Below are positions 4,770 to 50,259 of a DNA stretch of 64,000 nt, in pieces (position 1 is the stretch's first letter; each line of letters opens with the position of its first letter). The stretch covers positions 6,697 through 70,696 of the forward strand of contig JBDTLT010000009.1 in assembly GCA_039934635.1 (NCBI GenBank), read 5' to 3'. The translations under genes were made by a program, and so were the position numbers. Origin of the DNA: Acidimicrobiales bacterium. GTDB taxonomy: Bacteria > Actinomycetota > Acidimicrobiia > Acidimicrobiales > WLNW01. The notes beneath the pieces were generated by a model. That model saw only the letters and a program-made list of their open reading frames with translations, was not told the DNA's origin and did no database searches.

Positions 4770-5309
4770 ATGGCATTGATCGGACTCGATCCGACGAGTG
4801 GTCCCATCGGGGGCGACAGCGGCAAACGCCTCGCTCCCCGTCCGGTTTCGCTGGCGGGACAAGTGGTCGGGCTCGTCGCCAACGGTCTCGGCCAAGGCGA
4901 GGCGTTCCTCGACGCCCTCTACGAAGAGCTCAACAAGATCGACGATCTCCAGGGCAAGGTCAAGGTCATCAAGGGGTCGGTGTCGATCGCGCCGTATCCC
5001 GACGATTGGAAGCGCTTGACCGAAGGAGCCACCGTCGCCATCACCGGCTTCGGTGGTTGAGGCAGCTGTAGCGCCCGCAGTTTGCGGGACGCCGTCGAAC
5101 TCGAGTGGGCCGGCATTCCGTCGGTGGCCATCATTCACTACGAGATGACCGGGTCGGCCAAGGCGATCGCCCGCATCAGCGGACACGAAGACTACGACTT
5201 TGTCACGGTCGGCTATCCGCACATCCCGACCGCGGTGTGGACTGCCGACGAGGCCAAAGAGATCGCGTCGGATGTTGCGCCGCTCGTGCGCAAGCTCTTG
5301 ACTTCGTAG
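4770..5309 (+). CDS. Putative selenoprotein with a U-G-S-C redox motif (179 aa, Sec at codon 97, TGA 5058-5060); the ORF caller splits it into 4770..5060 and 5082..5309
   Basis: Both called ORFs are in the same frame. Only TGA plus 7 sense codons (GSCSARS) separate them. GGAGG lies 9-13 nt before the ATG at 4770, and the second half has no RBS or ATG. The context is ITGFGG-U-GSCS, with a hairpin 10 nt after the TGA. It resembles what I recall RefSeq naming 'UGSC family (seleno)protein'; I could not verify this. Confidence 0.72.
5071..5092 (+). promoter_or_regulatory. SECIS-like stem-loop downstream of the TGA at 5058
   Basis: The sequence gcgcccgc-AGUUU-gcggg(a)cgc gives an 8-bp stem with one bulged A and a 5-nt apical loop containing G and U. 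It starts 10 nt after the UGA, which is the spacing expected for bacterial SECIS elements. Confidence 0.6.
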
Positions 5310-16930: not shown

Positions 16931-16937
16931 CGGTCGG

Positions 16938-19256: not shown

Positions 19257-19306
19257 GAACCCATGGTCGCACACCACCCACGCGTGGTGGGTACTGGCCT
19301 TCTGCG

Positions 19307-20077: not shown

Positions 20078-20097
20078 TTTTCGCTTACTCTGGCCGT

Positions 20098-20925: not shown

Positions 20926-20928
20926 GTC

Positions 20929-22128
20929 TCAGGGACTCGGTACACCGAGCAACAGAACCCGCGACGATCCGTTCGCCCACAACCCATCGGCCGATGGCCC
21001 GGTTGCGTCGCGGTTCGTACCGGTCAGATCGAACGCCGTCGTAACCGTTCCTCGCGTCACGTCGACCAGCGCCAGGCCGTCCGCGCTGATCGCCTTCGCC
21101 GACGACGCGACATAACGCAGGTAGACGAGATTGTTCACCGCGCCGGCGACAGAGGCGGATGCGAAGTCGGCCGGCAGCATCGTCTTCGCGCCGGTTGTGC
21201 CCACGAGCGCGAGCGGCTTCGCGGCTTCGACCTTGAAGCCGTCGACCGTCGTGGGGGCCGGCGCCTCCTTCATCGTCAATTGCAGCGTCGGATCGGTTGC
21301 GCCCGCCTCGAGTCGCACGAACACACCGGTCCGCTCGCTCTTCGGACGTTGGAGATCGACCAGGTATCCGTCGTCGAGCGCCGATGCATTGACCATGCGG
21401 TTGGTCGCACCGATGTCGATGGCCTCGTCCACGAACCGGAACGTCGTCAGGTCGACCGTGCGCCGGACGATGTACGGGATGCGGTCACCGTCCACCGCGC
21501 CGTCGGCGAACAAGAAGCTGAAGCGATGATCGTCCACGACCTGAAGGCTGTTGGTGAAGAGCGAATGCGACGAATCGATCGCGCTGGTCGTGTAGTAGTT
21601 CTTGCCCTTCGTGTCGTAGCTCTCGATCAGCACATCGGTGCCGACACCCTCTCGCGCGTCGTCGCCGACGTCGGCCGTCGACGCGCGCAAGGCAACGACC
21701 CAACCTGACCCGACGGCGACATGCGGCACGCCGGCGGTCGCGATCGGTCTCCACGAGGGGTCGCGGCCGACTTCCTCGACCGTCCACCCCTTGTTGACGC
21801 GCAGGTACTTCGCCGCGTCGTCTTCCATCGCGACGACGAACGGACCGCTGGTGCCATTCGTGATCGCGAGCAACACGCCGTTTTGGTTCGTGGCGGTTAC
21901 CGAACCGGCTTTGAGCGCTTCGAAGCTGCTCGACGATTTCAGCGGGACGTAGTGGCCCTTGTCGTCCCCGTCGAGGATCGGCGAGCCCAGTTCACCGCCG
22001 GGCGCCGCCGTCTCGATCGAAGGCCCCAACGATGTGTGCGCCGGATCGCCCGAGGACTCGGCCTTCTTGCCCGAACAGGCGCCGACCACGAAAACCAGTG
22101 CCATCACTGCGGCCAGTGCCCGTTTCAT
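20929..22128 (-). CDS. Lipoprotein of unknown function, 399 aa
   Basis: The signal and lipobox are MKRALAAVMALVFVVGAC. The composition looks beta-rich. It is the last gene of the minus-strand cluster 25444->20929. Confidence 0.75.
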   Translation of the reverse strand: MKRALAAVMALVFVVGACSGKKAESSGDPAHTSLGPSIETAAPGGELGSPILDGDDKGHYVPLKSSSSFEALKAGSVTATNQNGVLLAITNGTSGPFVVAMEDDAAKYLRVNKGWTVEEVGRDPSWRPIATAGVPHVAVGSGWVVALRASTADVGDDAREGVGTDVLIESYDTKGKNYYTTSAIDSSHSLFTNSLQVVDDHRFSFLFADGAVDGDRIPYIVRRTVDLTTFRFVDEAIDIGATNRMVNASALDDGYLVDLQRPKSERTGVFVRLEAGATDPTLQLTMKEAPAPTTVDGFKVEAAKPLALVGTTGAKTMLPADFASASVAGAVNNLVYLRYVASSAKAISADGLALVDVTRGTVTTAFDLTGTNRDATGPSADGLWANGSSRVLLLGVPSP

Positions 22129-30641: not shown

Positions 30642-31850
30642 ATGAATGCGACACGCAACTCAGCAGACGGACCACTCCGCGGTGTTCGCATTGTCGATTT
30701 GTCGACCGTGCTGTCCGGCCCCATGGCGACCACACTCCTCGCCGATCAGGGCGCGACCGTGATCAAGGTCGAAGCACCCGGCGCCGGCGACCTGACGCGA
30801 CAGATCTCGACGCGCAGCAACGGCGTGACGGCCATGTTCCAGGTCGCCAACCGCGGGAAACGCGCGATCACCATCGATCTGCGTCGTGAACACGGCCTGG
30901 CGGTGCTGCACAAGCTGGCCGCCGGCGCCGATGTGTTCGTGCAGAATTTCCGGCCCGGCGTCGTCGACCGCATCGGCATCGGCTACGACGCGCTGCGCGC
31001 ATTGAACCCCGAGTTGATCTATCTGTCGATCAGCGGTTTCGGATCGGTCGGCCCTCTCGCCCAGACGAAGGTGTACGACAACTTGATCCAAGCCGCGTCG
31101 GGCTTCGCGCACGGCCAAGCGGGCGCCGACGGCGCCCCCACGTTCATCAAGAACCTTGCCTGCGACAAGATCACTGCACTCACCGCCGCACAGGCGATCA
31201 GCGCGGCGCTCTACGCACGAGCAATGGGTCGCGGAGGCCAGCACATCGAGCTCGCCATGCTCGATGCGGCGGTGTGGTTCCTGTGGACCGACCGGGCAAC
31301 CGAATTCACCTGGACCGGCGAGGATGTCAAGGTGTTGCCGTCGTTGTCGCAGTACGACGTCACGCGATTCAAAGATGGATGGGGCACGATCGCCGCGGTG
31401 ACCGACGAAGAGTTCGCCGGGCTCTGTCGCGCCCTCGATGTCGCGCACATCGCCGAGGACCCTCGATTCACCACGATGACCAAGCGTCTCTCGGATCCCG
31501 ACTATCCCCGCGTCTACCGCGAGATCGTGCAAGGGGCCGCCGGCAAATTCACGATCGGCGAAGCGCTGCGCCGCCTGAGCGAAGCCAAGGTGCCCGCCGT
31601 CGCGGCCGTGGCGCTGTCGGAGATTCCGGACCATCCTCAGATCATCGCCAACGAGCTCATCGTCGCGGACGAGCATCCGCTCGCCGGTCCGCTGCAGCAA
31701 CCGCGGCCCGCGGCGCGGTTCTCCGAGACGCCGGCGGCACCCGCGGGGCCGGCCCCGGTCCCCGGACAGCACACCGACGCCATCCTCGCCGAGCTCGGCT
31801 ACAGCGCGACCGAGTGCGCCGCGTTGCGATCCGATGGCGCCGTCGCCTAA
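30642..31850 (+). CDS. CoA-transferase family III (CaiB/BaiF-type)
   Basis: LRGVRIVDLSTVLSGPMATTLLADQGATVIKVE and ...VFVQNFRPGVVDRIGIGYDAL are family-III signatures. Confidence 0.9.
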   Translation: MNATRNSADGPLRGVRIVDLSTVLSGPMATTLLADQGATVIKVEAPGAGDLTRQISTRSNGVTAMFQVANRGKRAITIDLRREHGLAVLHKLAAGADVFVQNFRPGVVDRIGIGYDALRALNPELIYLSISGFGSVGPLAQTKVYDNLIQAASGFAHGQAGADGAPTFIKNLACDKITALTAAQAISAALYARAMGRGGQHIELAMLDAAVWFLWTDRATEFTWTGEDVKVLPSLSQYDVTRFKDGWGTIAAVTDEEFAGLCRALDVAHIAEDPRFTTMTKRLSDPDYPRVYREIVQGAAGKFTIGEALRRLSEAKVPAVAAVALSEIPDHPQIIANELIVADEHPLAGPLQQPRPAARFSETPAAPAGPAPVPGQHTDAILAELGYSATECAALRSDGAVA

Positions 31851-36839: not shown

Positions 36840-36962
36840 AGTGACCTCCGACCCTAGTCACGGTCACCCGGGGCTTTGACGATTGGGCCCATCATCACGA
36901 GCCCGTCGATCGCGCCAGTAGCTGTACGATCGACGGTGCCCGCCAGCCGACGAGGGGACCCA

Positions 36963-38186
36963 ATGGCCTCATTCCCTGAAGTACCCAAGATCATTTCGGT
37001 CGACGATCACGTCGTCGAGCCGCCCGATCTGTGGACCAACCGCCTCCCGGCGAAGTACCAGGACCGCGCCCCTCGCATCGTGCGCGAAAAGTGCACGATG
37101 AAGATGGTCGGCGGCGTGTTCACGTTCGAGCGCAACGTGCCCGACGGTGATTGGTGCGATGTGTGGCTCTACGACGATCTCGTCTACCCGTTCCCCAAGC
37201 TGTCTGCGGCGAGTGGTTTCGCCAATCTCGACAACGAACCGGTCACGTTCGACCAGATCCGGCCGGGCGGTTGGAAGCAGAAGGAACGACTCGAAGACAT
37301 GGACGCCAATCACGTCCAAGCGTCGATCAACTTCCCCAACGTATTGCCACGCTTTTGCGGGCAAGCGTTCCTCGAGCGCCAAGACAAAGAGCTGGCGCTC
37401 TTGTGCGTCCAGGCGTACAACGACTGGACGATCGACGAGTGGTGCGCGGGCGCGGGTCACGGTCGTTTGATCCCGCTGACGATCATTCCCTTGTGGGATC
37501 CGCATTTGGCCGCCAAAGAGATTCACCGCTGCGCCGACAAAGGCAGCCATGCGATCACGTTCTCCGAAAATCCGTACCACCTCGGGCTGCCGTCGGTGCA
37601 CGACAAAGATCGTTTCTGGGACCCGATGTTCCAGGCGTGTGTCGAAACCGACACGGTCGTCAACATGCACATCGGTTCGTCGTCCAAGATGCCGTCGACG
37701 TCACCTGACTCTCCGTTCATCGTGAGCTCGATCCTCACGTTCCAAAACGCCATGGGATCGATGATCGACTACCTCATGTCCGGGGTGTTCCAGCGCTTCC
37801 CCGAGCTGCGCATTGCGTACAGCGAGGGCCAGGTCGGCTGGGTGCCTTACGTGCTCGAGCGGGCCGACAAGTTGTGGCACGAGCGCGGCGACACGAGCTT
37901 CGGCAGCGACCTACCCGCACCGCCGTCGACGTACGTCAAGGACCACATCTGGTTCTGCATCTTCGACGACGACACCGGCTTGCGTAACCGCAACCAGATC
38001 GGCATGGACCAGATCACGTTCGAAGTCGACTTCCCGCACGCCGATTCGACGTTCCCGCACACCTTGAAGGTGGCCGAGGACATCGTGGCCCGGGCCAAGC
38101 TCAACAAGACCGAGACGCAAAAGCTGTTCCGCGGCAACGCCATCAAGCTCTACCACCTCGACAAGTACTACGGCATCAAGAAGTAG
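36963..38186 (+). CDS. Amidohydrolase-2 (ACMSD-like metal-dependent hydrolase/decarboxylase) family protein, paralog 1
   Basis: I trimmed the ORF to the ATG at 36963. IISVDDHVVEPPDLWTNRLPAKY and ...FEVDFPHADSTFP are present. It is closely similar to 43516..44712. Confidence 0.85.
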   Translation: MASFPEVPKIISVDDHVVEPPDLWTNRLPAKYQDRAPRIVREKCTMKMVGGVFTFERNVPDGDWCDVWLYDDLVYPFPKLSAASGFANLDNEPVTFDQIRPGGWKQKERLEDMDANHVQASINFPNVLPRFCGQAFLERQDKELALLCVQAYNDWTIDEWCAGAGHGRLIPLTIIPLWDPHLAAKEIHRCADKGSHAITFSENPYHLGLPSVHDKDRFWDPMFQACVETDTVVNMHIGSSSKMPSTSPDSPFIVSSILTFQNAMGSMIDYLMSGVFQRFPELRIAYSEGQVGWVPYVLERADKLWHERGDTSFGSDLPAPPSTYVKDHIWFCIFDDDTGLRNRNQIGMDQITFEVDFPHADSTFPHTLKVAEDIVARAKLNKTETQKLFRGNAIKLYHLDKYYGIKK

Positions 38187-38194
38187 CCCCGCCG

Positions 38195-38232
38195 ACTTCT
38201 TCCGGTGCTGCTGCTACGGCGCCGGAAGAAGT
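38195..38232. terminator. Long hairpin between convergent genes (bidirectional terminator candidate)
   Basis: acttcttccggtgc-(10 nt)-gcgccggaagaagt gives 14 bp including one G.U pair. It starts 9 nt after the amidohydrolase stop, and its right arm lies in the last codons of the GNAT gene. Confidence 0.5.
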
Positions 38233-38741
38233 ACGGACGGGTCTTTCCACGCGTACAGAAAGCCGACGACGCTGCCTCCCCCGGGGGCCTCGGAGATCTC
38301 TTGGCCGACGCGCTCACCGCCACGCGCCTCGTAGAAGGCCTGTGCCGGCGCGTTTGCTTCGAGGACTGCGAGGTACAAGCGCTTGTTCGTCGCCCGCGCC
38401 ATCACTGCAGACGCGGATTGCGCCATCAGTTGCGTGCCGATCCCGGTGCGCTTGACATCGTGGGCCACATGGAGATTGTCGAGTAGGGCGCCCAGCAGAG
38501 GGTCGTGATCGAGGATCGTGTGGACGAACCCGATGATCGAGCCGCGCCATTCGGCAACAACTGTTTCATCGCGGGCACTCGGACGGGCCAAGCGCTCGGA
38601 CCAGACAGCTCGCCGGTCGTCGAAGACATCTCCGTCGAGGAACGCGTCCGAGTACGCACCGCGGTAACTGTTCCGCCAACTCTCGGCATGCAGCAGCGCG
38701 ATCGCATCGATGTCTTGCGCGTTGGCTCGCCGGAACTGCAC
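38214..38741 (-). CDS. GNAT-family N-acetyltransferase
   Basis: The product is 175 aa. HVAHDVKRTGIGTQLM matches the R/Q-x-x-G-x-G/A acetyl-CoA motif. Confidence 0.85.
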   Translation of the reverse strand: MQFRRANAQDIDAIALLHAESWRNSYRGAYSDAFLDGDVFDDRRAVWSERLARPSARDETVVAEWRGSIIGFVHTILDHDPLLGALLDNLHVAHDVKRTGIGTQLMAQSASAVMARATNKRLYLAVLEANAPAQAFYEARGGERVGQEISEAPGGGSVVGFLYAWKDPSVLLPAP

Positions 38742-38799
38742 CAGAGCACCCTATGCCCCGACCGCCGAACGGGCCGAGAGTTTTCTCCGGACCTCGCGG

Positions 38800-39651
38800 T
38801 CAGGTCTGCACGTGCTCGAAGCCGAATCGGCCTTTGATACACAGGTTTCCGTGCGTGATGTCGTGATCGTGCGGTGACGTCACCTTCACGATGCGGTTGT
38901 CCTGCACGTGCAGCGTCAGCGTGCAACCAACACCGCAATACGGGCAGATGGTGTCGGTGCTGGTTTGGCGCGCCTCGTCCCACGTGCCCGCGGCGCGCAT
39001 CTCGAATTCGGAGGTCGGCATCAGCGCGCCCGTAGGGCACACCGCGATGCAGTTACCGCAATAGACACAGGCCGAGTCGGTCAGCGCGACGTCCCACTCG
39101 GTCGAAATACGCGCATCGAAGCCGCGCCCGGCGACGCCGATCGCGAACGTGTTCTGCCATTGCTCGCCGCACGCGTCGACGCACTGGTAACACAAGATGC
39201 ACTTTGCGTAGTCACGAACGTACAGCGCGTTGTCGATCTTGACCGGCTGCTCGACGGTGGCCCGCTCGCCAAAGCGTTCGGGCTGCGCGCCGTATTCGGT
39301 CATCCAGCGATCGATGTTGGGCGCGATCGACAGGTCAGTCGCGCTCGCCAGGAACTCGAGGACCATGCGCCGGGAATGGCGCGTGCGCTCGGTGGCGGTC
39401 TGCACGACCATGCCGGCCTCCACGGGTCGCGAACACGAGGGCACCAGCGCGCGCGACCCCTCGACCTCGACCACGCACACGCGGCAGGCATTCTTCGGTG
39501 TCAGCGTGTCGCCATAACACAGCGTCGGGATGTCGCGCCCGGCCGATCGGCACGCGTCGAGCACGGTCGAGCCATCGGGGACGCGCTGGGTTTCGCCGTC
39601 GACGGTGATCTCGATCAACCGGCGCGGCGCGGCGACCGGTTGCTCGGTCAT
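38800..39651 (-). CDS. Formate dehydrogenase Fe-S module: NuoG-like N-terminal [2Fe-2S] plus 2x[4Fe-4S] plus the Molybdop_Fe4S4 domain, encoded as a separate polypeptide
   Basis: The 2Fe-2S motif is TLCYG...NACRVCVVEV. The ferredoxin motifs are CILCYQCVDAC and CVYCGNCIAVCP. The product ends just after the MopB Fe4S4 motif (CPYCGVGC...CIKGRFGFEHVQT*). Its ATG overlaps the NuoEF stop (ATGA). Confidence 0.85.
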   Translation of the reverse strand: MTEQPVAAPRRLIEITVDGETQRVPDGSTVLDACRSAGRDIPTLCYGDTLTPKNACRVCVVEVEGSRALVPSCSRPVEAGMVVQTATERTRHSRRMVLEFLASATDLSIAPNIDRWMTEYGAQPERFGERATVEQPVKIDNALYVRDYAKCILCYQCVDACGEQWQNTFAIGVAGRGFDARISTEWDVALTDSACVYCGNCIAVCPTGALMPTSEFEMRAAGTWDEARQTSTDTICPYCGVGCTLTLHVQDNRIVKVTSPHDHDITHGNLCIKGRFGFEHVQT

Positions 39652-41492
39652 TGCCGCCGCCGGAACGGCTCGAACTTCACCATCGCGGACTCGATCGCAC
39701 TGCTGGCAGTCTGGCCGAGACCACAGATGGATGCGTCGCGCATGGCCTGCCCGATGTCGGCGAGCAGGGCCAACTCGGTGTCGACCGAGCCGCGGGGCTG
39801 ACCGGCCGCGAGCCGGGCGAGCAATTCATCCTGGCGCACTGCGCCGACGCGGCACGGCACGCATTGCCCGCACGATTCGTCGCGGAAGAACTCGGCGATG
39901 CGCCGCAGAAATGCCACCAGATCGACGGTGTCGTCGAGCACGAGTACGACACCCGAACCGAGCGCGGCGGACGCCGCACGCGTGCCTTCGAATGTGAGCG
40001 CGACATCGATCTCGTCGGCCCGCACGAACGTGCCGGCCGCGCCGCCGAGCAACACGCATTGCAGCGCCCGACCGCTGCGTACCCCGCCCGCCATCTCGAG
40101 TAGTTCGCGCAGCGACACACCGAATTCGACCTCGTACACGCCCGGCAGGGCCACGCAACCCGATACGCAGAACAGCTTGGTTCCGTTCGAGCCATCGGTA
40201 CCAGTGGCGGCGAAGGCAGAGGCGCCGCGCTCGAGTATGGGCAACACGTTGACGAGCGTCTCGACATTGTTGACCACGGTCGGTACGCCGAAGAGGCCGG
40301 CATCGGTCGGGTACGGAGGCTTGTTGCGGGGTTCACCGCGATAGCCCTCGATCGAGTTGAAGATCGCCGTCTCCTCGCCGCAGATGTAGGCGCCCGCCCC
40401 GCGCCGGATCTCGATATCGAACGAGAACCCGTGCCCGTCGACGTCGTCACCCAACCATCCGGCGGCGCGGGCGGTGGCGATGGCGTGGTCGAGCCGTTCC
40501 CACGCGAGCGGGTATTCGCCCCGCAGGTAGATGTAACCCCGAGCGCTGCCCGTGGCGTAGCCGGCGATCGTGAGCGCGTCGATCACGGCGAAGGGATCGC
40601 CCTCCATGAGCACGCGATCTTTGAACGTTCCCGGCTCGCTTTCGTCGGCGTTGCACACGACGAAGTGCGGTTGGCGTTCGTGCTCGCGAACGGCCTGCCA
40701 CTTGCGGCCGGTGGGAAACGCCGCCCCGCCGCGCCCGACGAGCCCACTGTCGAGCACCTCGCGCACGACGCCCTCCGCGCCGAGCTCGAAGGCTCGTTGC
40801 ACCGCGCGCCGGCCGCCGTTGGCCGTGTACTCGTCGATGCTGGCGGGATCGACGACGCCGATCCTGCGTAACAACACCAGGCCCTCGGTATCGCGTTGGG
40901 GCACGCTCGCCGCGTGCGCCCACTGAGGCGCGACCGCGCCGTTCATCGAGACACGGATCGCGTCGGCGTCGACGAACGGCAGCGGCGCTTCGTACGGCGG
41001 GTCACCGGCGTGGATCACCAGTGCCGCGGGTGCCCGCTCGCACAACCCGAGGCAAGGGCTCGGGTGCCAACTGCTCATCGTGCGCGCCCCGGCGGGCGGT
41101 TCGCCCGCACGGAGCTGATCGACGATGGTGTCGGCGCCACTCAGTTTGCAGGCGAGATCGGTGCAAAGGTGCACGACGCGCGCGGGGCTCGGTTCGAGCG
41201 AGAACAATCCGTAGAACGACGCGACGCCGTACGCATCGGCCGGCGCGATCGAAAGGCGCCGGCACACGTAGCCGATGCCTCCTTGGCTGATCCAGCCGAC
41301 ACGCGATTGCAGCGCGTGCAACGCAGGCAACAAGAGGTCACGACCGTGGATGCGGTCATCCCGCGAGAACGACGCCCGCAGGTCACGCTCACTGCGCACG
41401 CCTCCCTCCCACGACGACGCCGACCGACCCAGCACCGCGTCGACCGCCGCTCGCTCGGCGTCGGTCGCTTCGGCCTCGAGGACGTGCTCCAT
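39648..41492 (-). CDS. NuoE-like [2Fe-2S] / NuoF-like (FMN, NADH, [4Fe-4S]) fusion; diaphorase module of an NAD-linked formate dehydrogenase
   Basis: The NuoE-like part reads LLPALHALQSRVGWIS...VHLCTDLAC. The NuoF part reads GLVGRGGAAFPTGRKW...ESCGQCVPCRVG. Its ATG directly follows the TAG of the upstream gene. Confidence 0.88.
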   Translation of the reverse strand: MEHVLEAEATDAERAAVDAVLGRSASSWEGGVRSERDLRASFSRDDRIHGRDLLLPALHALQSRVGWISQGGIGYVCRRLSIAPADAYGVASFYGLFSLEPSPARVVHLCTDLACKLSGADTIVDQLRAGEPPAGARTMSSWHPSPCLGLCERAPAALVIHAGDPPYEAPLPFVDADAIRVSMNGAVAPQWAHAASVPQRDTEGLVLLRRIGVVDPASIDEYTANGGRRAVQRAFELGAEGVVREVLDSGLVGRGGAAFPTGRKWQAVREHERQPHFVVCNADESEPGTFKDRVLMEGDPFAVIDALTIAGYATGSARGYIYLRGEYPLAWERLDHAIATARAAGWLGDDVDGHGFSFDIEIRRGAGAYICGEETAIFNSIEGYRGEPRNKPPYPTDAGLFGVPTVVNNVETLVNVLPILERGASAFAATGTDGSNGTKLFCVSGCVALPGVYEVEFGVSLRELLEMAGGVRSGRALQCVLLGGAAGTFVRADEIDVALTFEGTRAASAALGSGVVLVLDDTVDLVAFLRRIAEFFRDESCGQCVPCRVGAVRQDELLARLAAGQPRGSVDTELALLADIGQAMRDASICGLGQTASSAIESAMVKFEPFRRRQ

Positions 41493-43415
41493 CTACAACC
41501 TCTCCAACCGCACGGCGGTCGCCTTGAACTCGGCAGTACCGGAACGCGGATCCACAGCATCGATCGTGAGCACATTGGTGTCCACATCGTCCGAGAAGTG
41601 AAACGTCATGAAGGCGAGCCCGGCGCGCAACGCGTGGTCGACACGCGCCGGCGCCACCACTGCACCTCTACGCGAGACGACCCTTACGGATTGGCCATCG
41701 GCGATGTCGAGGCGACGCGCGTCCTCAGGCGAAAGGTCGAGGGTTTCGCCGAGCCGTAACGGCGACGCGTAGCTGCCCGACTGCACGCCGGTGTTGTAGC
41801 TGTCGAGGCGGCGACCGGTGGTCAGCCGCAGCGGGAAGTCTTCGGTGAGCTCGTCGACGGGAAGGTCGTGGGTCACCACATTGAACGGAGCGGGCCGGCC
41901 TCTACGCGTGGGATCGTCATCCCACAGCCGCCCGTGCAGGAACGACGGCTCGATTGTGTCGTCGTCGTAACACGGCCACTGAATGCCGTCCAACGCCTCG
42001 ATGCGCGCGTACGACATGCCCGCGTGAATCGGCGACAACGAGCGCACCTCGTTCCAGATGGCTTCGGCGCGCTGGCGGGGCTCGTCACCGTAACGCCAGT
42101 CGCGGCCCATTCGCGACGCGAGTTGCAACAGGACTTCGATGTCGTCGCGTGCGTTACCGGGTGGGTCGAGCGCCTTGCGCACGCGCTGTACGCGTCGCTC
42201 GCTGTTCGTCACCGTGCCTTCGCTCTCGCACCATGCTGCGGCCGCAGGAAAGACGACATCGGCCATCTCCGCGGTCTTGGTCAAGAAGATGTCCTGCACC
42301 ACCAGAGTGTCGAGGCCTTCGAGTAAGTGTCGCGCGTGGGTCACGTCGGCTTCGCTCTGCGCCGGATTCTCGCCGATGACGTACAGCGCGGTGAGGTCGC
42401 CCCGACCCATTGCCTCGAACATCTGCGTCAACGTCCAACCTGGTTTCGGCGGCACGGTGCACTCCCAGGCCTGGTCGAACTGGCCACGCAGATCCGCGTC
42501 GGTGATGTCTTGAAAGCCGGGCAGCCGCGGGGGGATGGCGCCCATGTCGCCGCCGCCCTGCACGTTGTTCTGACCGCGTAGCGGGTTGAGGCCCGAGCCG
42601 TAGCGACCGACATGGCCGCAGAGCAGCGCCAGGTTGATGAGCGCCAACACGTTCTCGACCGCGTTGTGGTGTTCGGTGATGCCGAGCGTCCAGCACAGTT
42701 GCGCGCGTGGCGCGCGGGCGTACGCGTGCGCAACCTGGCGAATCACTTCGGCGGGCACGCCGGTCTCCATCTCGCCCCGCTCGAGCGTCCACGACTCGAC
42801 CGAGCGCGCGTACGCATCGAAGTCGACGGTGGCTCGCTCGATGAAGTCACGGTGCGCAAGGCCTTGGTGGATGATCTCGCGCGCCATCGTGTTGGCCAGT
42901 GCAATGTCGGTCCCGACGTCGAGCCCGACCCAGATGTCGGCGAACTGCGCGGTCGCGGTACGCCGCGGGTCGACGACGAACAGCTGCGCGCCGTTGCGCA
43001 CCCCCGCCAGCACGTGATGGAAGAAGATCGGATGCGCCTCGCGCGCGTTGGATCCCCACAACACGATCACGTCGGTCGCTTCGATCTCTTTGTAGGACGA
43101 CGTTCCGCCACCCACTCCGAACACTGCCGCCAGACCGACGACGCTGGGAGCGTGTCAAGTTCGATTGCACGAATCGATGTTGTTCGTCCCCATCACCGCC
43201 CGGGCGAACTTCTGCGCGAGAAAGTTCATCTCGTTGGTGGCCTTCGAACAGCTGAACATGCCGAAGGCCTGCGGGCCTTTGGTGTCGAGCGCTCGGCGAA
43301 ACCCGGCAGCGGCGCGGTCGAGTGCCTCATCCCAGGTTGCCGGGCGCAGCGCGCCGTTGTCGCGCACCAGCGGCTCGGTCAGCCGTGAGTAGACCCGTGC
43401 CGGCCGTCGCGCCAT
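41493..43415 (-). CDS. Formate dehydrogenase catalytic (MopB, bis-MGD) subunit with selenocysteine at TGA 43155-43157; lacks its own N-terminal Fe-S domains; split by the ORF caller
   Basis: ORFs 43155..43604 and 41493..43124 are in the same frame. The joined sequence reads ...MGTNNIDSCNRT-U-HAPSVVGLAAVFGVGGGTSSY..., matching the FdhF-type C.R.UH.PSV active site. The C-terminus has a molybdopterin dinucleotide-binding domain. The start at the ATG at 43415 is approximate. Confidence 0.82.
43126..43142 (-). promoter_or_regulatory. SECIS-like apical stem-loop for the FDH UGA
   Basis: The mRNA reads GUCGUC-GGUCU-GGCGGC: a 6-bp stem with 2 G.U pairs and a GGUCU loop. It begins 12 nt after the UGA. 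As I recall it, the loop sequence GGUCU is the same as in the E. coli fdhF SECIS. Confidence 0.6.
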
Positions 43416-43515
43416 GGGTCCATCGTAAACCCCCGGTGGGTGCCCCAAGGCATAAGGGCCCCGTTCGACACAGTCGCTGCCGCAGAGGGCAAACTGGTGG
43501 CGACTAGGGGGAACC

Positions 43516-44712
43516 ATGGCCGACATCGAGATCCCACCGATCATCAGCGTGGACGACCACGTCGTCGAACCCCCCGACCTCTGGACGAGCCGGCTGCCCG
43601 CCAAGTACAGAGATGTCGGCCCCCACGTGGTCTACAAACCGACCGGCAAACCGATCCTCGTCGGTGGCGGCTATATCGAAGAGCCGGGTACCGAAGGCGA
43701 CCCGATCGCCTGGTGGTTCTTCGAGGACCACAAGTATTCGGTCAAGCGGCTCATCGCTGCGGCGGGGTATTCGCCCGACGAGATCGGCCTCGAGGGCGTG
43801 ACGTTCGAGGACATGCGCCCCGGCTGTTGGCAGCCAAAGGCGCGACTGGCCGACATGGACGTCAACAATGTCGAAGCGTCGCTGTGCTTTCCCAACTACC
43901 CCCGCTTCTGCGGACAGCTCTTCAAGAACGCCAAGGACAAAGACCTCGCGCTGCTGTGCGTACAGGCCTACAACGACTGGATGGTCGACGAATGGTGCGG
44001 CGACTCCAACGGTCGCCTCATCCCACTGTGCCTGATCCCGTTGTGGGATGTCGACCTCGCCGTCACGGAGATCTACCGCAATGCGGCGCGCGGCGTCCGT
44101 GCGGTGGCCTTCAGCGAATGCCCGGCCTGGATCGACCTGCCGTCGATCCACTCGGGCTACTGGGAGCCGTTCTGGGCCGCGTGCGCCGACACCGGCACCG
44201 TGCTGTGCATGCACATCGGCTCCGGCACCAAGACGATGACCACCAGTTCGGATGCACCCGAGGGCGTGACGGCTACCGGCATCTTCACCAACAGCGCGAT
44301 GTCGATGATCGACTTCTTGTTCTCGGGTGTATTGGTGCGCCATCCCGATCTCAAGCTGTTGTACGCCGAAGCGCAGATCGGTTGGATCCCCTACGTCGTC
44401 GAACGCATCGACGACATCTGGAACACCCATCGTGGATGGGCCCACGTGCGGGACAACACTCCCGAGCCACCCTCGACCTACTACTACCGGCAGATGCACA
44501 GCTGCTTCTTCAAGGACTCCGTCGGGCTCGAGCTGCTCGATCGAGTCGGTGTCGACAACATCATGTTCGAGACCGACTACCCGCACCAGGACGGCACATG
44601 GCCCAACTCCAAAGAAGTCGCGCAAAAGCTCTTCGGCCATCTCGACGCCGCCACCACACGCAAGATCGTCCGGGGTAACGCGGTGCGATTGTTCGGTCTC
44701 GACGCGAAATAA
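43516..44712 (+). CDS. Amidohydrolase-2 family protein, paralog 2
   Basis: IISVDDHVVEPPDLWTSRLPAKYRD and ...FETDYPHQDGTWP are present. It is collinear with 36963..38186. Confidence 0.87.
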   Translation: MADIEIPPIISVDDHVVEPPDLWTSRLPAKYRDVGPHVVYKPTGKPILVGGGYIEEPGTEGDPIAWWFFEDHKYSVKRLIAAAGYSPDEIGLEGVTFEDMRPGCWQPKARLADMDVNNVEASLCFPNYPRFCGQLFKNAKDKDLALLCVQAYNDWMVDEWCGDSNGRLIPLCLIPLWDVDLAVTEIYRNAARGVRAVAFSECPAWIDLPSIHSGYWEPFWAACADTGTVLCMHIGSGTKTMTTSSDAPEGVTATGIFTNSAMSMIDFLFSGVLVRHPDLKLLYAEAQIGWIPYVVERIDDIWNTHRGWAHVRDNTPEPPSTYYYRQMHSCFFKDSVGLELLDRVGVDNIMFETDYPHQDGTWPNSKEVAQKLFGHLDAATTRKIVRGNAVRLFGLDAK

Positions 44713-44718
44713 CGCTTC

Positions 44719-46263
44719 GTGCAGATAGAGCAGGCGCCGACGGGAAGCGGTCTCGCGCCCAAACAGATCCACATCTTGATGATCGCGGTCATGACCGGGA
44801 TGTTCCTCTCCGCGCTCGACGCGACGATCGTGCAGACCGCCATCCCCACGATCGTGGGCGATCTCGGCAACTTGTCGCAGGCACCATGGATCGCAGTGTC
44901 GTATCTGCTGACGCAGACGATCTCGACACCGATCATCGGCAAGCTGTCCGACATCTACGGTCGCAAGCGCGTCTTCCAGATCAACATCGCCTTGTTCATC
45001 GCGTCATCCGTGCTCGCCGCCCTGTCGCAGAACATGTGGCAACTCGTGCTCTTCCGGGCGATACAGGGTCTCGGCGCGGGCGGGCTCAACACGCTGCCGA
45101 TGGCGATCGTCGGTGACGTGCTCCCACCGGCCGAGCGGGCCAAGTACCAGGGCTACATATCCGGCACTTTCATGCTCGCGGCCCTCATGGGCCCACTGGC
45201 GGGCGGCTTCTTCGTCGATCATCTCAATTGGCGGTGGGTGTTCCTCGTCAATCTCCCGATCGGCGCCGCGTCGATGACAGCAGTGCAGCGCTATCTGCAT
45301 GTCGAGCGGGTGGCGACACGCCGAGCCATCGACTATTTCGGTGCCACCGCACTGGTCATCGCCACGACTCCGCTCGCCTTCTCGCTGCTGTGGGCGGGCG
45401 AGAAATACGGTTGGGGCAGCGCCGTGACGCTTGCGTTGTTCGCCATTTCTGCCATAGGCACCCTGCTGTTCGTGCTCATCGAGTTGCAAGCCGAAGAGCC
45501 CATCCTGCCGATGACATTGTTCAGCAACCAGATCGTGCGGACCACGATGGTCGGCGGTTTCATCATCGGCGTCGCCATGTATTCGATGAACAGTTACACG
45601 GGCGTGTTCCTGCAAGTCGTCGACGGCGTGAGCGCCACGAAGTCGGGTTTGTTCATGCTGCCGATGATGATCGCGGTGACCACCGCGTCGATCACGTCAG
45701 GCCGGCTCATCGCCCGCACCGGCAACTACAAGCCGTATCCGATCTGCGGGGTCGCGATCATGTTGGTCGCCGCGGTCTTGTTGAGCACCATGGACGTTCA
45801 CACCACTCGCTGGGGAGTCGCGGTGCGGGTAATGATCGCCGGTCTCGGCATGGGACAGATCGGCCCGTCGCTCACGATCATCGTGCAGAACGCGGTCGAC
45901 TACCGAGACCTTGGTGTCGCGACCGCCGGATTCGCCTTCGTTCGCTCACTGGGTGGTTCGGTCGGCTCGGCCGTGATCGGCGCGGTGTACTCGCACCGAG
46001 TTGATCGACTGATTCCCAAGTACGTCGGACAAGAGAACATCGATCGACTACCCGACACCGCGGCACTGCGCGGACGGCCGTCGACGATCCGCGGCTTGCC
46101 GGAACCAGTGCGTACCGGCGTACGCCGCGCGTTCGCTGACGCGGTGACCGGATCGACGCGCGTGGTGATCCCCGTTTTGGTCGTGACGCTGGTCGTGTTC
46201 TCGATGATCCCGAAGGTGCCGCTCAAGCGCAGCTTCGACAAACAACCCGTCGCCGTCGAATAA
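44719..46263 (+). CDS. MFS transporter, DHA2 (EmrB/QacA) family
   Basis: LDATIVQTAIPTI, GKLSDIYGRKRVF and FRAIQGLGAGG are present, with about 14 TMs. The GTG start lies 7 nt after the previous stop. Confidence 0.87.
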   Translation: MQIEQAPTGSGLAPKQIHILMIAVMTGMFLSALDATIVQTAIPTIVGDLGNLSQAPWIAVSYLLTQTISTPIIGKLSDIYGRKRVFQINIALFIASSVLAALSQNMWQLVLFRAIQGLGAGGLNTLPMAIVGDVLPPAERAKYQGYISGTFMLAALMGPLAGGFFVDHLNWRWVFLVNLPIGAASMTAVQRYLHVERVATRRAIDYFGATALVIATTPLAFSLLWAGEKYGWGSAVTLALFAISAIGTLLFVLIELQAEEPILPMTLFSNQIVRTTMVGGFIIGVAMYSMNSYTGVFLQVVDGVSATKSGLFMLPMMIAVTTASITSGRLIARTGNYKPYPICGVAIMLVAAVLLSTMDVHTTRWGVAVRVMIAGLGMGQIGPSLTIIVQNAVDYRDLGVATAGFAFVRSLGGSVGSAVIGAVYSHRVDRLIPKYVGQENIDRLPDTAALRGRPSTIRGLPEPVRTGVRRAFADAVTGSTRVVIPVLVVTLVVFSMIPKVPLKRSFDKQPVAVE

Positions 46264-46348
46264 CGCCTTCTTGTGCGGCTCCGCCGCAACGGACTGGCGG
46301 CTTCGCCGCGGAACTGACGATGCCGTCAACTGAGTTGCAGGGGAAGTC

Positions 46349-47116
46349 TCAGCCCGTCATCAATCTTGAAAAGGCGGCGCGTTGCGCGGCGATGCGGGTC
46401 GGGTCGGCTGGCACCGCGCTGCTTCGTTCGAGCACCACGCGGGCGATCTTGCCGCCCCCCACGGTGAATGCCTCGCCGGTGATCGCACACTGCTCGTGGC
46501 ACAGCCACGCCACTGCTGCCGCCGCCTCACCTGCCGGGGGCGCGGTGCTGCCCTCGCGCGCCAGGCGCGTCGAACCCCACGGCAACACGCAATTGAGGTG
46601 GATGCCGTGCGGCTCGCCTTCGATCGCGAGCGTCTTGGTCATCGCGAACACCGCGCCCTTGGCCGCGACATAGTGTGCGCGCCCGGCGATGCCGAAGATG
46701 CCGCCCGACGCCGTCGTCACGATGCGGCCGTAGTGGGCCGCCGTCATGAGAGACCACGCGGCCCGCACGACATGAAACGTGCTCGTGAGGTTGTGGCGCA
46801 ACGCGTCATCGAATTCAGATGTGGTCATCTCGGCGAAGTCGCGGTGCCACGAGACGCCGGCATTCGCAACGAGGACATCGATCGGGCCGGCTTGCTCGAT
46901 GACCGATCGAGCGCCGGCCTCGCTCGATATGTCCGCCGCGATGGCCATCACGCCGAGCTCCACCGCAGTTGCGTGGACCGCATCGTGATCGATGTCGTTG
47001 AGAATCACACGGGCACCGCGTGCGGCCAGTAGTTCGGCATAGGCGCGCCCGAGACCGCGCGCCGCGCCGGTGACGAGCGCGGCGCGGCCGTCGAAGCGCG
47101 GCTCGTCTTCGGTCAT
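46349..47116 (-). CDS. SDR-family oxidoreductase
   Basis: I trimmed the ORF to the ATG at 47116 (ATGA overlap with the upstream stop). VTGAARGLGRA, NAG and YVAAKGA (YxxxK) are present. Confidence 0.87.
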   Translation of the reverse strand: MTEDEPRFDGRAALVTGAARGLGRAYAELLAARGARVILNDIDHDAVHATAVELGVMAIAADISSEAGARSVIEQAGPIDVLVANAGVSWHRDFAEMTTSEFDDALRHNLTSTFHVVRAAWSLMTAAHYGRIVTTASGGIFGIAGRAHYVAAKGAVFAMTKTLAIEGEPHGIHLNCVLPWGSTRLAREGSTAPPAGEAAAAVAWLCHEQCAITGEAFTVGGGKIARVVLERSSAVPADPTRIAAQRAAFSRLMTG

Positions 47117-48246
47117 CGAGGATCGATCTGGTAGAGCAGCGCGGCGTTGTCGGTCGCGATGCGTTGCCGCGCCGTAGCATCGAGCAAGGCAGTGCGATCG
47201 GCGAACACTTCGCGTGAACGCGGGAACAGGCCTTCGCTGTGCGGATAGTCGGAGCCCCACAGGATGCGATCGCTGCCGACTGCCTGCGCGACCGCCGCGG
47301 CCGACGGATCTTCGCAGAACTGCGCCCAAACGTTGTTACGCACGAAGTCGCTCGGCAACGTGCCCGCCGCGAAACGGTGACCCTTGGTGGCCCGCTGCGT
47401 GTACGTGTAGTCCATGCGTTCGACGAAGAACGGCAGCCAACCCACTTCGTGTTCGGCGGAGACGATGCGCAGGCCGGGAAACCGCTCGAACACACCCGAG
47501 AAGATGATGTCGCCGAGTGCCTGGCGCACCCAATGGTCGGCGGTCGCGAAGGCGGTCTGCGCCGGCTTGGCCGATGCAGACTGCGCGCCCGGGATCACCG
47601 GCGCAGCTTGACGGTCGGGATTCGCCCGATAGGTGCCGATGTGCAACGACAACGGCACATCGAGCGCGGCCGCCACCGCCCACAGTCGATCGAACGACGG
47701 ATCCGCGTACGTGCGGCCCCCCGGGAGCCCGACAGGGATAAGCCCGGCCGCCAACCCGCGGAGCACCGCGCGCTCGAGCTCGGCTGCCGCGGTCTCGATG
47801 TCGTCGACGTTGAGCGCGGCCACGCCTCGCAGCCGTTGTGGCTGCGCGGCCGTGAACTCGGCCAACCAGTCGTTGTACGCCCGGCAGGTGGCGTCGACGA
47901 GCACGGTGTTGCGCACGGCGTAGTGCTGCATCTGCTGCGTGGGATAAAGGACCGATGCGGTCACGCCGTCGGTGAGGTTCTCGTCGACGTAAAGATCGGG
48001 GTCGTAGGCGCCGGCACGCACGTTCTCGAAGCGATCCGCCAGCACGAGGGCGTCGGGATCAGCGAAGCGAACGCCCGCCTGCGTGCCACCGGCGAACGAG
48101 TTCGTGCGATGGCCGTCCACATACCACCAGTCGTTGCCGTCGTCGTCGCGACGTACCTGTGGAGCACGCTCGCCCCACTCGTTCTGCAGCCGCTGGGTCC
48201 AGACATCGGGCGGCTCGATGACGTGCGAGTCAGCCGAGATCATCAC
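47113..48246 (-). CDS. Amidohydrolase-2 family protein, paralog 3 (more divergent)
   Basis: MMISADSHVIEPPDVWTQRL and ...WGSDYPHSEG are present. Confidence 0.85.
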   Translation of the reverse strand: MMISADSHVIEPPDVWTQRLQNEWGERAPQVRRDDDGNDWWYVDGHRTNSFAGGTQAGVRFADPDALVLADRFENVRAGAYDPDLYVDENLTDGVTASVLYPTQQMQHYAVRNTVLVDATCRAYNDWLAEFTAAQPQRLRGVAALNVDDIETAAAELERAVLRGLAAGLIPVGLPGGRTYADPSFDRLWAVAAALDVPLSLHIGTYRANPDRQAAPVIPGAQSASAKPAQTAFATADHWVRQALGDIIFSGVFERFPGLRIVSAEHEVGWLPFFVERMDYTYTQRATKGHRFAAGTLPSDFVRNNVWAQFCEDPSAAAVAQAVGSDRILWGSDYPHSEGLFPRSREVFADRTALLDATARQRIATDNAALLYQIDPR

Positions 48247-49444
48247 GAGGCCGAGCCACGAAACGCACCCGCAGTTCTTCGAACTTCTCGGCCGGTCCGA
48301 ACGGTTCGCGACGGATCGGATCGGTTGTCACTTCGAGATCGCCGCACCGGCGCACCATGATCGGGATCGCCTCGGTGAGGTTCGCCCGCGCCAGCGCCTG
48401 GCCGAGACAGAAGTGGGGACCGTGGCCGAACGCGGCGTGACGATGATCGCCACGGCGAACGTCGAAGCGATGCGGATCGGCAAAGCGGGCCGGGTCGCGA
48501 TTGGCCGCCTGTCGCGACACCAAGATCGTGTCGTCGACATCGAGATGTAGGCCGATGACATCGACCGGTGCGAGTGCCTTGCGCCGCGTGGAACGAAACG
48601 GCGGCGCGTAACGCAGGCACTCTTCGACGGCGTCGCGGTCGATCGACGGGTCGTCGTGCACGATCTGCGCTTGGTCGGGATGAGCAGAGAACAAGTAGGC
48701 GGCGTTGGAGATCGCGGCTTCGCTCGAGCCGACGGCGCCACCGATGATGTTGACCACCATCGCCAGCAGTTCATCGGGGGTCAGGCGGTCGCCTGCTTCT
48801 TCGACGTGCACGAGTGCCGACACGAGGTCGTCGCCCGGGTCGCGGCGTCGGCGCTGTACGAGCCGATCGACGTATCCGTACAGCGCGACGATGCCATCAT
48901 TGGCGCGCTGTTTGCGCTCGTCGGTCATCGGCCAGGCGAAGCCCTCGTCGGTGCCGACCATGAACGCCTGTATCTCGTCGCGATCGTGCTCGTCGATCCC
49001 GAGGAAGACGCAAATGCCATAGAGCGGAATGTCGTGGGCGTAATCGGCTATGACGTCCATCTCGCCCGCGCCGGCCACCGCATCGAGCAGCCGGTGCGCG
49101 TGCTCGCGCACGAGCGGCCGCACCCGCTGAACCTGCCGGGGCGTGAACGCCCGACCGACGAGCGCGCGTAGGCGCGTGTGATCGTCGCCCGGTTGCGCGT
49201 TGAGCGACAGACGCCGCCACTCACGGAACGGGCCCTCGGTGATACCGAGCCGATCGAGTGCATCGAGCCCGAGCGGTGCCATCGCGGGATGGCCCGACAC
49301 GGTCTCGAGATCGTCGATCGACAACGTGACGGGCTCACCGGATTCGCTGACCGCGGTGCGTCCGCGCGCGCGTGCTTCGTCGAGCACCGGATACGGGTCT
49401 TGCCAGAACGCCGCACTGCGCAACGGCAAGGTCATCCGTGCCAT
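48230..49444 (-). CDS. Cytochrome P450
   Basis: I trimmed the 631-aa ORF to the ATG at 49444, 2 nt after the crotonase stop. The heme loop is FGHGPHFCLGQALA and the EXXR is EECLRYAPP. Confidence 0.9.
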   Translation of the reverse strand: MARMTLPLRSAAFWQDPYPVLDEARARGRTAVSESGEPVTLSIDDLETVSGHPAMAPLGLDALDRLGITEGPFREWRRLSLNAQPGDDHTRLRALVGRAFTPRQVQRVRPLVREHAHRLLDAVAGAGEMDVIADYAHDIPLYGICVFLGIDEHDRDEIQAFMVGTDEGFAWPMTDERKQRANDGIVALYGYVDRLVQRRRRDPGDDLVSALVHVEEAGDRLTPDELLAMVVNIIGGAVGSSEAAISNAAYLFSAHPDQAQIVHDDPSIDRDAVEECLRYAPPFRSTRRKALAPVDVIGLHLDVDDTILVSRQAANRDPARFADPHRFDVRRGDHRHAAFGHGPHFCLGQALARANLTEAIPIMVRRCGDLEVTTDPIRREPFGPAEKFEELRVRFVARPRDDLG

Positions 49445-49446
49445 GG

Positions 49447-50259
49447 TCACCGATTGTGATACGAGGGATCGCGTCCCTCGGCCTTGGCCGCCTTGAACTC
49501 GCGGTAGTCGTCGGAGTGGTAGATCTGCGCTTCGAGGAGTGCCTCTTCTTCGATTGACTGCTGCACGAGGTGCGTAGCGATACGGCTCAGGTCGCGGCGG
49601 AACAGTTTGACGCTGAATGCCGGCAACTTGGCGATCTTGTGGGCCATCTCGAGCGCGGTGGCGTCGAGCTCGTCGTCGGTGACGACCCTCGACACGATGC
49701 CGTGCGCGAGTGCCTCGTGGGCCTCCATCACGCGGCCGGTGAGGGCCATGTCCGCGGCCAGCCCGTGGCCGGCAATCTGGAACAGGCGTGCGACGCCACC
49801 GGAGTCGGGGACCACACCGTGCATCAACTCGGGCAACCACAGCTTGGCCGTCTCGCCGGCGATGCGAAGGTCGCACAAGAGCGCCCGCTCGAACATGCCA
49901 CCGATGACCCAGCCTTTGAGCGACACGATGATCGGTGCCGGGCAACTGAACAGCATTTGCGTCCACCCATGACCGCGCTCGATGTGCTGCAGATGGCTCA
50001 TGCCGCCGTCGCGGGCACCGCCGAGCTCGCGCAGATCGCGCCCCGAGGAGAACGATTTGCCATTGCCGCGCCAGATCACACAACGGATGTCGTCGCGCAG
50101 GTGAAGCTCGTAGAAAACCTCCCACAGCCGTCGATTGAAGGCGTCGGAGGCGGCGTTGTGGACCTCGGGTCGATTGTTACTGATGATCGCTACCGGCCCG
50201 TCGAAATCGAGGAGCACGGGCGGTGGCGGCAATTCGTCTTGCTTCGTTGGCGGCATCAT
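49447..50259 (-). CDS. Enoyl-CoA hydratase/isomerase (crotonase) family protein
   Basis: ISNNRPEVHNA...GNGKSFSSGRDL is present. It is the first gene of the operon 50259->46349. Confidence 0.87.
   Translation of the reverse strand: MMPPTKQDELPPPPVLLDFDGPVAIISNNRPEVHNAASDAFNRRLWEVFYELHLRDDIRCVIWRGNGKSFSSGRDLRELGGARDGGMSHLQHIERGHGWTQMLFSCPAPIIVSLKGWVIGGMFERALLCDLRIAGETAKLWLPELMHGVVPDSGGVARLFQIAGHGLAADMALTGRVMEAHEALAHGIVSRVVTDDELDATALEMAHKIAKLPAFSVKLFRRDLSRIATHLVQQSIEEEALLEAQIYHSDDYREFKAAKAEGRDPSYHNR

Follow-up and report, generated by a model that had tools for sequence, protein, structure and literature searches.

The in-frame UGA in a formate dehydrogenase gene with a split, reordered alpha subunit from an Acidimicrobiales bacterium is very probably read as selenocysteine

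A 64-kb window of the genome of an Acidimicrobiales bacterium (assembly GCA_039934635.1, contig JBDTLT010000009.1; all coordinates below are positions in this window, and genes on the minus strand are given as such) contains two minus-strand open reading frames (ORFs), 43155..43604 (149 aa) and 41493..43124 (543 aa), which lie in one frame and are parted by a TGA codon plus ten sense codons. We were interested whether these ORFs are the remnants of a broken gene, two separate genes, or a single gene in which UGA is read as selenocysteine (Sec). The arrangement itself, from which the original prediction of a Sec-containing formate dehydrogenase had started, was borne out by the ORF list and the sequence: the TGA occupies 43157-43155, ten sense codons follow, and a GTG stands at 43124, the bases around the TGA being AAT CGA ACT TGA CAC GCT CCC AGC GTC GTC GGT CTG GCG GCA GTG. 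Translation of 43415..41493 (minus strand) gave 640 codons and a stop, with the TGA at codon 87 as the single internal one, in the peptide context NNIDSCNRT-U-HAPSVVGLAAVFGVGGG, where HAPSVVGLA are the residues after U. We regard it as very probable that 43415..41493 is one functional gene, encoding the Sec-containing catalytic subunit of a formate dehydrogenase. The two features on which the question turns are:

41493..43415, minus strand: putative gene for the Mo/W-bis-pyranopterin catalytic subunit of formate dehydrogenase, 640 residues including Sec87 (from Pfam, TIGR01591 and structure alignments)
43155..43157, minus strand: in-frame UGA, codon 87, at the predicted Mo/W ligand, presumably read as selenocysteine (from alignment to Sec140 or Cys and from conservation of the TGA)

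This gene probably starts with the ATG at 43415, to which the N-termini of full-length orthologues align as M-x(5-12)-Y-x-RLT-x-PLVRD, and 100 nt separate it from a divergent amidohydrolase gene (ATG 43516). A promoter and terminator scan of 38000-43800 gave nothing informative. Pfam analysis of the translated protein led to the domains Molybdopterin (PF00384, 5e-69) and Molydop_binding (PF01568, 6e-27), and among the NCBIfam models TIGR01591 Fdh-alpha (2e-192, 640.9 bits) was far ahead of all others, with a match over profile positions 52-671 of 672. The best matches in the PDB were all formate dehydrogenases, namely FdhF of the hydrogen-dependent carbon dioxide reductase, archaeal Fdh, E. 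coli FDH-H, FdsA and Fdh1A; the protein aligned to residues 307-931 of FdsA and 60-686 of FdhF. The UGA had been predicted to fall on the molybdenum-ligand position, and the alignment put it there: at residue level the TGA codon corresponds to X (Sec140) of E. coli FDH-H (1aa6_A), to the Mo-ligand Cys of R. capsulatus FdsA (6tg9_A, Cys of CARVCHSPT) and to a Cys present in about 114 actinomycete orthologues and invariant in the 13 full-length ones that were aligned (SCNRT-C-HAPSV). The catalytic motif residues U87-H88 and R280 (in LRGQNNVQ) are in place, and a U/C-H plus R-G-Q/H motif is strictly conserved in such enzymes (PMC8808070). The FS0 [4Fe-4S] domain (Molybdop_Fe4S4) is absent from this polypeptide, which starts at position 52 of the TIGR01591 profile, and the gene is thus a split version of the Fdh-alpha family, not a canonical single-chain member. 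The enzyme is a metal-dependent, probably NAD+-linked formate dehydrogenase. Of the FdhF/FdhA-type label in the original prediction, the part naming a Sec formate dehydrogenase catalytic subunit stood, and the type had to be changed to the NAD-linked FdsA/Fdh1A kind with NuoE-, NuoF- and NuoG-like partners, as distinct from a stand-alone FdhF.

Conservation of the TGA was followed by a scan over one genome per GTDB species, which returned 495 relatives; 80 of these (68-93% protein identity) were kept and joined with the window and three metagenome contigs to a Sec-type set of 84 sequences. A TGA was found at codon 87 in 84/84 of these orthologues. The coding sequence was intact on both sides of it, without frameshifts or other stops, and tblastn covered residues 1-640. 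The hosts of the 80 relatives are mostly Acidimicrobiia, Gaiellales and other Actinomycetota metagenome-assembled genomes (MAGs), and a few relatives lie in bins labelled Acidobacteriota, Rokuibacteriota or Gammaproteobacteria. Operons 68-75% identical to that of the window occur in loci L013, L017, L031, L039, L050, L054-L056, L060, L066, L068 and L080, from bins labelled Acidobacteriota, Terriglobia, Thermoanaerobaculia, Rokuibacteriota and Gammaproteobacteria; either lateral transfer or mis-binning may account for the Sec formate dehydrogenase operon in these non-actinobacterial bins. Clustering on identity by the unweighted pair group method with arithmetic mean, applied to the 84 Sec-type and 114 Cys-type sequences, parted the Sec-type (82/84) from the Cys-type. 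The other two Sec-type sequences clustered among the Cys-type, which hints at a recent switch between Sec and Cys. That gene callers would split the gene had been expected, and all eight of the nearest database proteins (85-92% identity) are indeed 543-aa fragments; in the gene tables of their contigs, available for four of the six that were looked up, an ORF of 60-86 aa (or truncated by the contig end) ends 30 nt upstream of the 543-aa fragment.

A bacterial selenocysteine codon is expected to be followed by a selenocysteine insertion sequence (SECIS), and a candidate was located on the same strand:

43126..43142, minus strand: putative core SECIS hairpin, stem 43142-43137/43131-43126, apical loop GGUCU at 43136-43132
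43114..43151, minus strand: candidate lower SECIS stem extension, 43151-43147 with 43118-43114, enclosing the core hairpin (weakly supported)

The predicted hairpin GUCGUC-GGUCU-GGCGGC was confirmed in the sequence, where it begins exactly 12 nt past the UGA (alignment columns 19-35), and in the predicted fold. Segments of 66 nt were aligned without gaps and pairing was counted over 77 distinct sequences. The upper helix, columns 19-24 with 30-35, was paired in 99.8% of the cells. At the pair 21-33, C:G was found in 46 sequences, G:C in 31 and an unpaired state in none. Column 21 is the third position of Val+5 (GTC/GTG) and column 33 that of Ala+9 (GCG/GCC); both are synonymous third positions, and therefore the covariation cannot stem from constraint on the protein. 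The pairs 20-34 (U:A vs U:G) and 23-31 (U:G vs C:G) change on one side only. Synonymous entropy was about 0 bits at His+1, Val+6, Gly+7 and Leu+8, compared with 0.8-1.85 bits at other nearby invariant Gly, Val and Leu codons; the Gly+7 codon is GGT in 83/84 sequences, and GGT makes up 4-31% at other invariant Gly codons. In the three DNA sequences available for Cys orthologues the loop codon is GGC, GGG or GGA and the GGUCU loop is lacking. The lower helix appears in the minimum free energy fold and, with 4 pairs, in the RNAalifold consensus. The likeness of the GGUCU loop to the apical loop of the E. coli fdhF SECIS had been pointed out in the original prediction, and correctly so: the 47-nt E. 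coli element is at least 99% identical to fdhF in 5413 E. coli records (100% among the matches listed), and GGUCUG lies at the same offset from the UGA in both genes. The check for a SECIS in this region was thus passed by comparative evidence, without a dedicated predictor. Rfam gave no family match in the window at the gathering threshold; its coverage of bacterial SECIS elements is poor (bioRxiv 10.64898/2026.04.03.716425). The conservation of the TGA together with the synonymous-site covariation in the hairpin is far beyond chance, and these comparisons support a hairpin that is maintained by selection and would be a bacterial SECIS of the fdhF type.

Does the organism decode UGA as Sec at all? 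When the window was scanned for in-frame TGAs flanked by coding-like composition, a second case was detected at 5058-5060:

4770..5309, plus strand: candidate UGSC-family selenoprotein gene, TGA 5058-5060 (Pfam UGSC, NF041046)

The ORFs on both sides of this TGA match Pfam UGSC (PF24696), and the joined sequence 4770..5309 spans positions 2-147 of 147 in the NCBIfam model NF041046 'UGSC family (seleno)protein', although its score (79.6 bits) falls short of the cut-off (125). In the motif GFGG-U-GSC this TGA stands for the U, a position taken by Cys in full-length homologues, and the closest relatives (65-89% identity) are fragments of 98-111 aa ending in ...GFGG or GFRG. From the 11th nt after this TGA a hairpin is predicted, from the single sequence, with the stem GCGCCCGCA/UGCGGG.CGC and the loop GUU. 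Genes for the decoding machinery were sought in the window and in the loci of relatives by motif and tblastn searches for SelA, SelB and SelD, with E. coli sequences as queries, and matches were obtained in locus L081 only. The locus belongs to a Gaiellales MAG, and downstream of its orthologous operon come fdhD, a Mop-domain gene, mobA, selB and selA (14856-21032, minus strand), with selB matching TIGR00475 (349 bits) and selA matching TIGR00474 (511 bits). Neither a tRNA-Sec nor selD was detected in the 21.9 kb of L081, and Rfam found nothing there at E <= 0.01. ARAGORN found no tRNA at all in the window and no tRNA-Sec in the window or in 83 loci. A database search with the SelA of L081 returned among its best 120 matches Gaiellales and metagenome sequences only, and is uninformative on Acidimicrobiales. 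For another order of the Acidimicrobiia, selA, selB, selC and selD have been reported in all complete genomes (bioRxiv 10.64898/2026.04.03.716425, 2026 preprint). From the UGSC gene in the window, selA and selB beside the L081 operon, and the universal TGA, a strong indirect case can be made that the window's organism would decode Sec.

The gene was then seen to head a group of three, the other two members being:

39648..41492, minus strand: gene for a predicted NuoE-NuoF fusion subunit, 614 aa, with [2Fe-2S] thioredoxin-like, flavin mononucleotide (FMN)/NAD(H)-binding and [4Fe-4S] domains
38800..39651, minus strand: gene for a predicted NuoG-N-terminal-like iron-sulphur (FeS) subunit, 283 aa, ending with a Molybdop_Fe4S4 (FS0) domain

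The TAG of the catalytic gene abuts the ATG of the NuoE-NuoF gene (junction TTG TAG ATG), and the stop of the latter overlaps the start of the 283-aa gene (ATGA). The fusion protein contains the Pfam domains 2Fe-2S_thioredx, Complex1_51K, SLBB and NADH_4Fe-4S and matches TIGR01959 nuoF_fam (1.6e-133). In the 283-aa protein Pfam found Fer2_4, Fer4_7/Fer4_Nqo3 and, at residues 231-282, Molybdop_Fe4S4, which make up, in this order, a [2Fe-2S] domain of the NuoG type, a ferredoxin domain with two clusters, and FS0. Its residues 234-282 correspond to TIGR01591 positions 1-49, and the whole protein aligns to residues 24-302 of FdsA and 64-339 of Fdh1A. Its Cys motifs (45/56/59/73, 151-161, 195-205 and 236/239/243/271) correspond to one [2Fe-2S] and three [4Fe-4S] clusters. 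No Cys occurs in the stretch between residues 73 and 151, and the His/Cys-ligated [4Fe-4S] cluster which we take to follow the [2Fe-2S] domain in N-termini of the NuoG/FdsA type appears to be missing. A Lys (K273, in LCIKG) follows the last FS0 Cys and hence lies on the 283-aa subunit; it corresponds to the Lys of FdhF LCLKG, which we take to mediate electron transfer from FS0 to the pterin. The catalytic and 283-aa genes are therefore the two halves of an alpha subunit of the FdsA/Fdh1A type, cut at the boundary of domain I and arranged in the order C-terminal part, beta subunit, N-terminal part.

The split and reordered architecture itself is a plain feature of the locus and of its relatives. 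The order Mo domain, NuoE-NuoF, NuoG-like is kept in all orthologous loci that extend far enough to reveal it, and the same three-gene order was found in the Cys-type operons of Thermopolyspora flexuosa, Saccharopolyspora antimicrobica and Nocardiopsis dassonvillei, in two of them followed by fdhD. This architecture is real and old, and not an assembly artefact. The gene fdhD adjoins the orthologous operons in L081, L084 and L086; in the window no match to FdhD-NarQ was obtained among the ORFs scanned with Pfam, and the gene may lie elsewhere in the genome. Literature searches, made in a limited library, found no description of such a split and reordered architecture or of a Sec formate dehydrogenase in Acidimicrobiia. 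It is possible, if on balance rather doubtful, that the operon represents a biochemically undescribed structural subclass of NAD-linked metal formate dehydrogenases, in which alpha is cut exactly between FS0 and the pterin-binding body and the FS0 cluster and its conserved Lys sit on another polypeptide than the metal; the Sec form of the subclass would prevail in uncultured soil and freshwater Actinomycetota (Acidimicrobiia, Gaiellales) and the Cys form mainly in cultured Actinomycetes.

Several genes around the operon are noted here for completeness. The flanking genes are catabolic (Amidohydro_2, MFS, SDR, P450, enoyl-CoA hydratase, CoA-transferase III) and syntenic in close relatives; in the neighbourhood at 36876-38186 and 43516-50259, which shares synteny with L001 and L002, there are three Amidohydro_2 genes, MFS transporters, SDRs, P450s and enoyl-CoA hydratases. 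A GNAT gene lies directly downstream of the operon (38214-38741), and large subunits of two molybdenum hydroxylases of the xanthine dehydrogenase family are encoded elsewhere in the window (16938-19277 and 58333-60588). In Saccharopolyspora antimicrobica (L085, 2411-5518, minus strand) the Cys-type operon stands beside a thiamine pyrophosphate enzyme with an oxalyl-CoA-decarboxylase-like domain set and a family III CoA-transferase, a neighbourhood that suggests oxalate breakdown linked to formate oxidation. The family III CoA-transferase genes of the window (1166-2401, 2401-3657 and 30642-31850) do not adjoin the operon.

How else might the interrupted frame be explained? If a nonsense mutation (TGC/TGT to TGA) had killed a Cys-type formate dehydrogenase gene, the ORFs would be its decaying remnants, and it is true that standard gene callers give two fragments, that Cys-type orthologues exist and that no Sec machinery was seen in the window. 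A decaying gene would however hardly carry the same TGA in 84/84 orthologues of many lineages at 68-93% identity and remain free of frameshifts and other stops, and extra constraint and covariation at the downstream synonymous sites, which keep the hairpin, are not expected of a dead gene. The downstream genes are intact and translationally coupled, and the same window holds a second gene with a Sec TGA typical of its family. The original prediction had remarked that, annotated as two fragments, the gene would look like a pseudogene; as its true status this is very unlikely in view of the 84/84 TGA and the hairpin covariation, and because of the conservation data we consider it effectively refuted. 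Next, the UGA could be a true stop, so that translation would yield a peptide of 86 aa and, after re-initiation at GTG 43124, a protein of 543 aa. Such a GTG does stand ten codons past the TGA, and this enzyme family already tolerates one split of the alpha subunit here. On the other hand, with two polypeptides the metal-ligand position would be empty and the conserved U/C-H-x-P-S motif cut through its middle, whereas the Cys orthologues are continuous through that point; moreover, the ten intervening codons are conserved as coding (HAPSVVGLA) and the same segment forms the covarying hairpin with the fdhF-type loop, so that we judge re-initiation to be highly improbable. About equally improbable is a read-through that does not insert Sec, either by Cys charged on tRNA(Sec) under selenium limitation or by a genome-wide reassignment of UGA. 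Selenium incorporation is not demonstrable from sequence, and Cys works at the codon-87 position in orthologues, but elsewhere in this operon UGA terminates translation in the usual way (ATGA closes the NuoE-NuoF gene, TGA the 283-aa gene) and the recoding signal is local and of the SelB type. Misincorporation of Cys would still use the Sec machinery and is therefore a variant of Sec decoding, not an alternative to it.

Some observations weigh against a Sec-decoded gene or temper the evidence for it. No selA, selB, selC or selD was found within the 64-kb window by ARAGORN, Rfam, motif search, tblastn and Pfam on about 47 ORFs. The TIGR01591 score of 640.9 is just under the curated cut-off of 666.25, because the catalytic gene lacks the first 51 profile positions. 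Since the hairpin sequence also encodes the conserved peptide V-V-G-L-A, the synonymous-site evidence alone is independent of protein constraint, and the Cys-type DNA control comprises three sequences only. In the shuffle control 0/500 shuffles attained the observed covariation score, and every slid register scored far lower, but as the sequences are related this control overstates the significance and its count is not a probability. The single-sequence fold is no more stable than that of a shuffled GC-rich sequence (z = +0.51), and therefore the SECIS argument rests on the comparative data. The lower helix is just 77% paired, and most of its conserved pairs are invariant. NAD+ as acceptor, and Mo versus W as metal, are inferred by homology only.

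Taken as one selenoprotein gene, the locus would work as follows. During translation the UGA at codon 87 would not be read as a stop; the mRNA hairpin 12 nt downstream would act as a bacterial SECIS, and, in analogy with E. coli fdhF, we infer that it binds SelB-GTP carrying Sec-tRNA(Sec) and hands it to the ribosome in the window's organism. Sec87 would be the protein ligand of a Mo or W bis-pyranopterin cofactor, with His88 and Arg280 as the other catalytic residues. The catalytic gene is the first of three translationally coupled genes, whose products are expected to assemble into one complex, the FS0 domain missing from the catalytic subunit being supplied by the C-terminus of the third product (283 aa) and the FMN/NAD(H) site by the NuoE-NuoF fusion of the second gene. 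Electrons would then probably pass from formate to Mo/W-Sec, then via FS0 and the FeS chain, both on the 283-aa subunit, to FMN and finally to NAD+.

There is nothing unusual about a Sec formate dehydrogenase gene as such: the type is well known, and its members are regularly split into two ORFs by gene callers. Among bacterial selenoproteins none is more widespread than FdhA, and Sec/Cys pairs within its family are familiar (PMC1794560); one more Sec FdhA is expected for that reason, and only the split, reordered alpha subunit and the neighbouring UGSC selenoprotein go beyond the expected. The main practical value is thus a correction of annotation: this gene and its relatives are called as fragments of 86 and 543 aa, and therefore formate oxidation will be missed too often when the metabolism of Acidimicrobiia and related MAGs is reconstructed, and the gene may be marked as a pseudogene. 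The same annotation problem affects the UGSC gene (4770-5309). Mildly useful as well are a clean comparative SECIS with perfect synonymous-site covariation across 84 genomes and the evidence for selenocysteine use in the window's lineage, and the split, reordered FdsA-type alpha could inform on FS0 docking and enzyme assembly.

Compared with known systems, the catalytic protein resembles E. coli FdhF in having Sec at the position homologous to Sec140, the U-H-x-P-S-V-x-G-L context and the Molybdopterin and Molydop_binding domains; FdhF differs in possessing its own N-terminal FS0 domain and in working with hydrogenase 3, without NuoE/F/G-like partners. The SECIS of E. coli fdhF has its hairpin at an equal distance from the UGA and GGUCUG (codons Gly-Leu) at an identical offset. 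Its stem sequence differs, and its loop GGUC is closed by A-U with a bulged U below, whereas the GGUCU loop of the window is closed by C-G. The module set of the window's operon recurs in the NAD+-dependent Mo formate dehydrogenase FdsABG(D) of R. capsulatus and Cupriavidus necator (6tg9/6tga), in which NuoE-like, NuoF-like, NuoG-N-like FeS extension and molybdenum bis-pyranopterin guanine dinucleotide (Mo-bisPGD) modules are found; the two window proteins jointly cover residues 24-302 and 307-931 of FdsA, and FdhD-type maturation genes accompany the operon in relatives of the window. FdsA is, however, a single polypeptide with Cys as Mo ligand, whereas in the window the ligand would be Sec, the subunit is cut after FS0 and the Mo part comes first and the FeS part last. 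In addition NuoE and NuoF are fused in the window's operon, unlike in FdsABG, and one FeS cluster of the FdsA/NuoG N-terminus appears to be absent from the 283-aa protein. The tungsten enzyme Fdh1AB of Methylobacterium/Methylorubrum extorquens (7e5z, 7vw6), whose beta subunit is also a NuoE-NuoF fusion, aligns with alpha residues 64-339 and 372-978 to the two window proteins and differs by an unsplit alpha subunit and a Cys ligand; in the window's enzyme the metal may be Mo or W. Also comparable are the Cys-type orthologues of cultured Actinomycetes (Thermopolyspora flexuosa, Saccharopolyspora, Nocardiopsis, Streptomyces and others), 64-71% identical over the full length, annotated as 'molybdopterin oxidoreductase family protein' or 'NAD-dependent formate dehydrogenase catalytic subunit', which share the reordered three-gene operon and the N-terminus without an FS0 domain but have TGC or TGT in place of the TGA, a loop codon that is not fixed and no GGUCU loop. 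A precedent for one domain of a Mo/W-bisPGD catalytic subunit as a separate polypeptide is FwdB/FwdD of formylmethanofuran dehydrogenase; there the separate piece is the C-terminal Molydop_binding domain, whereas in the window the N-terminal FS0 domain is the one detached, and it is joined to a NuoG-like protein.

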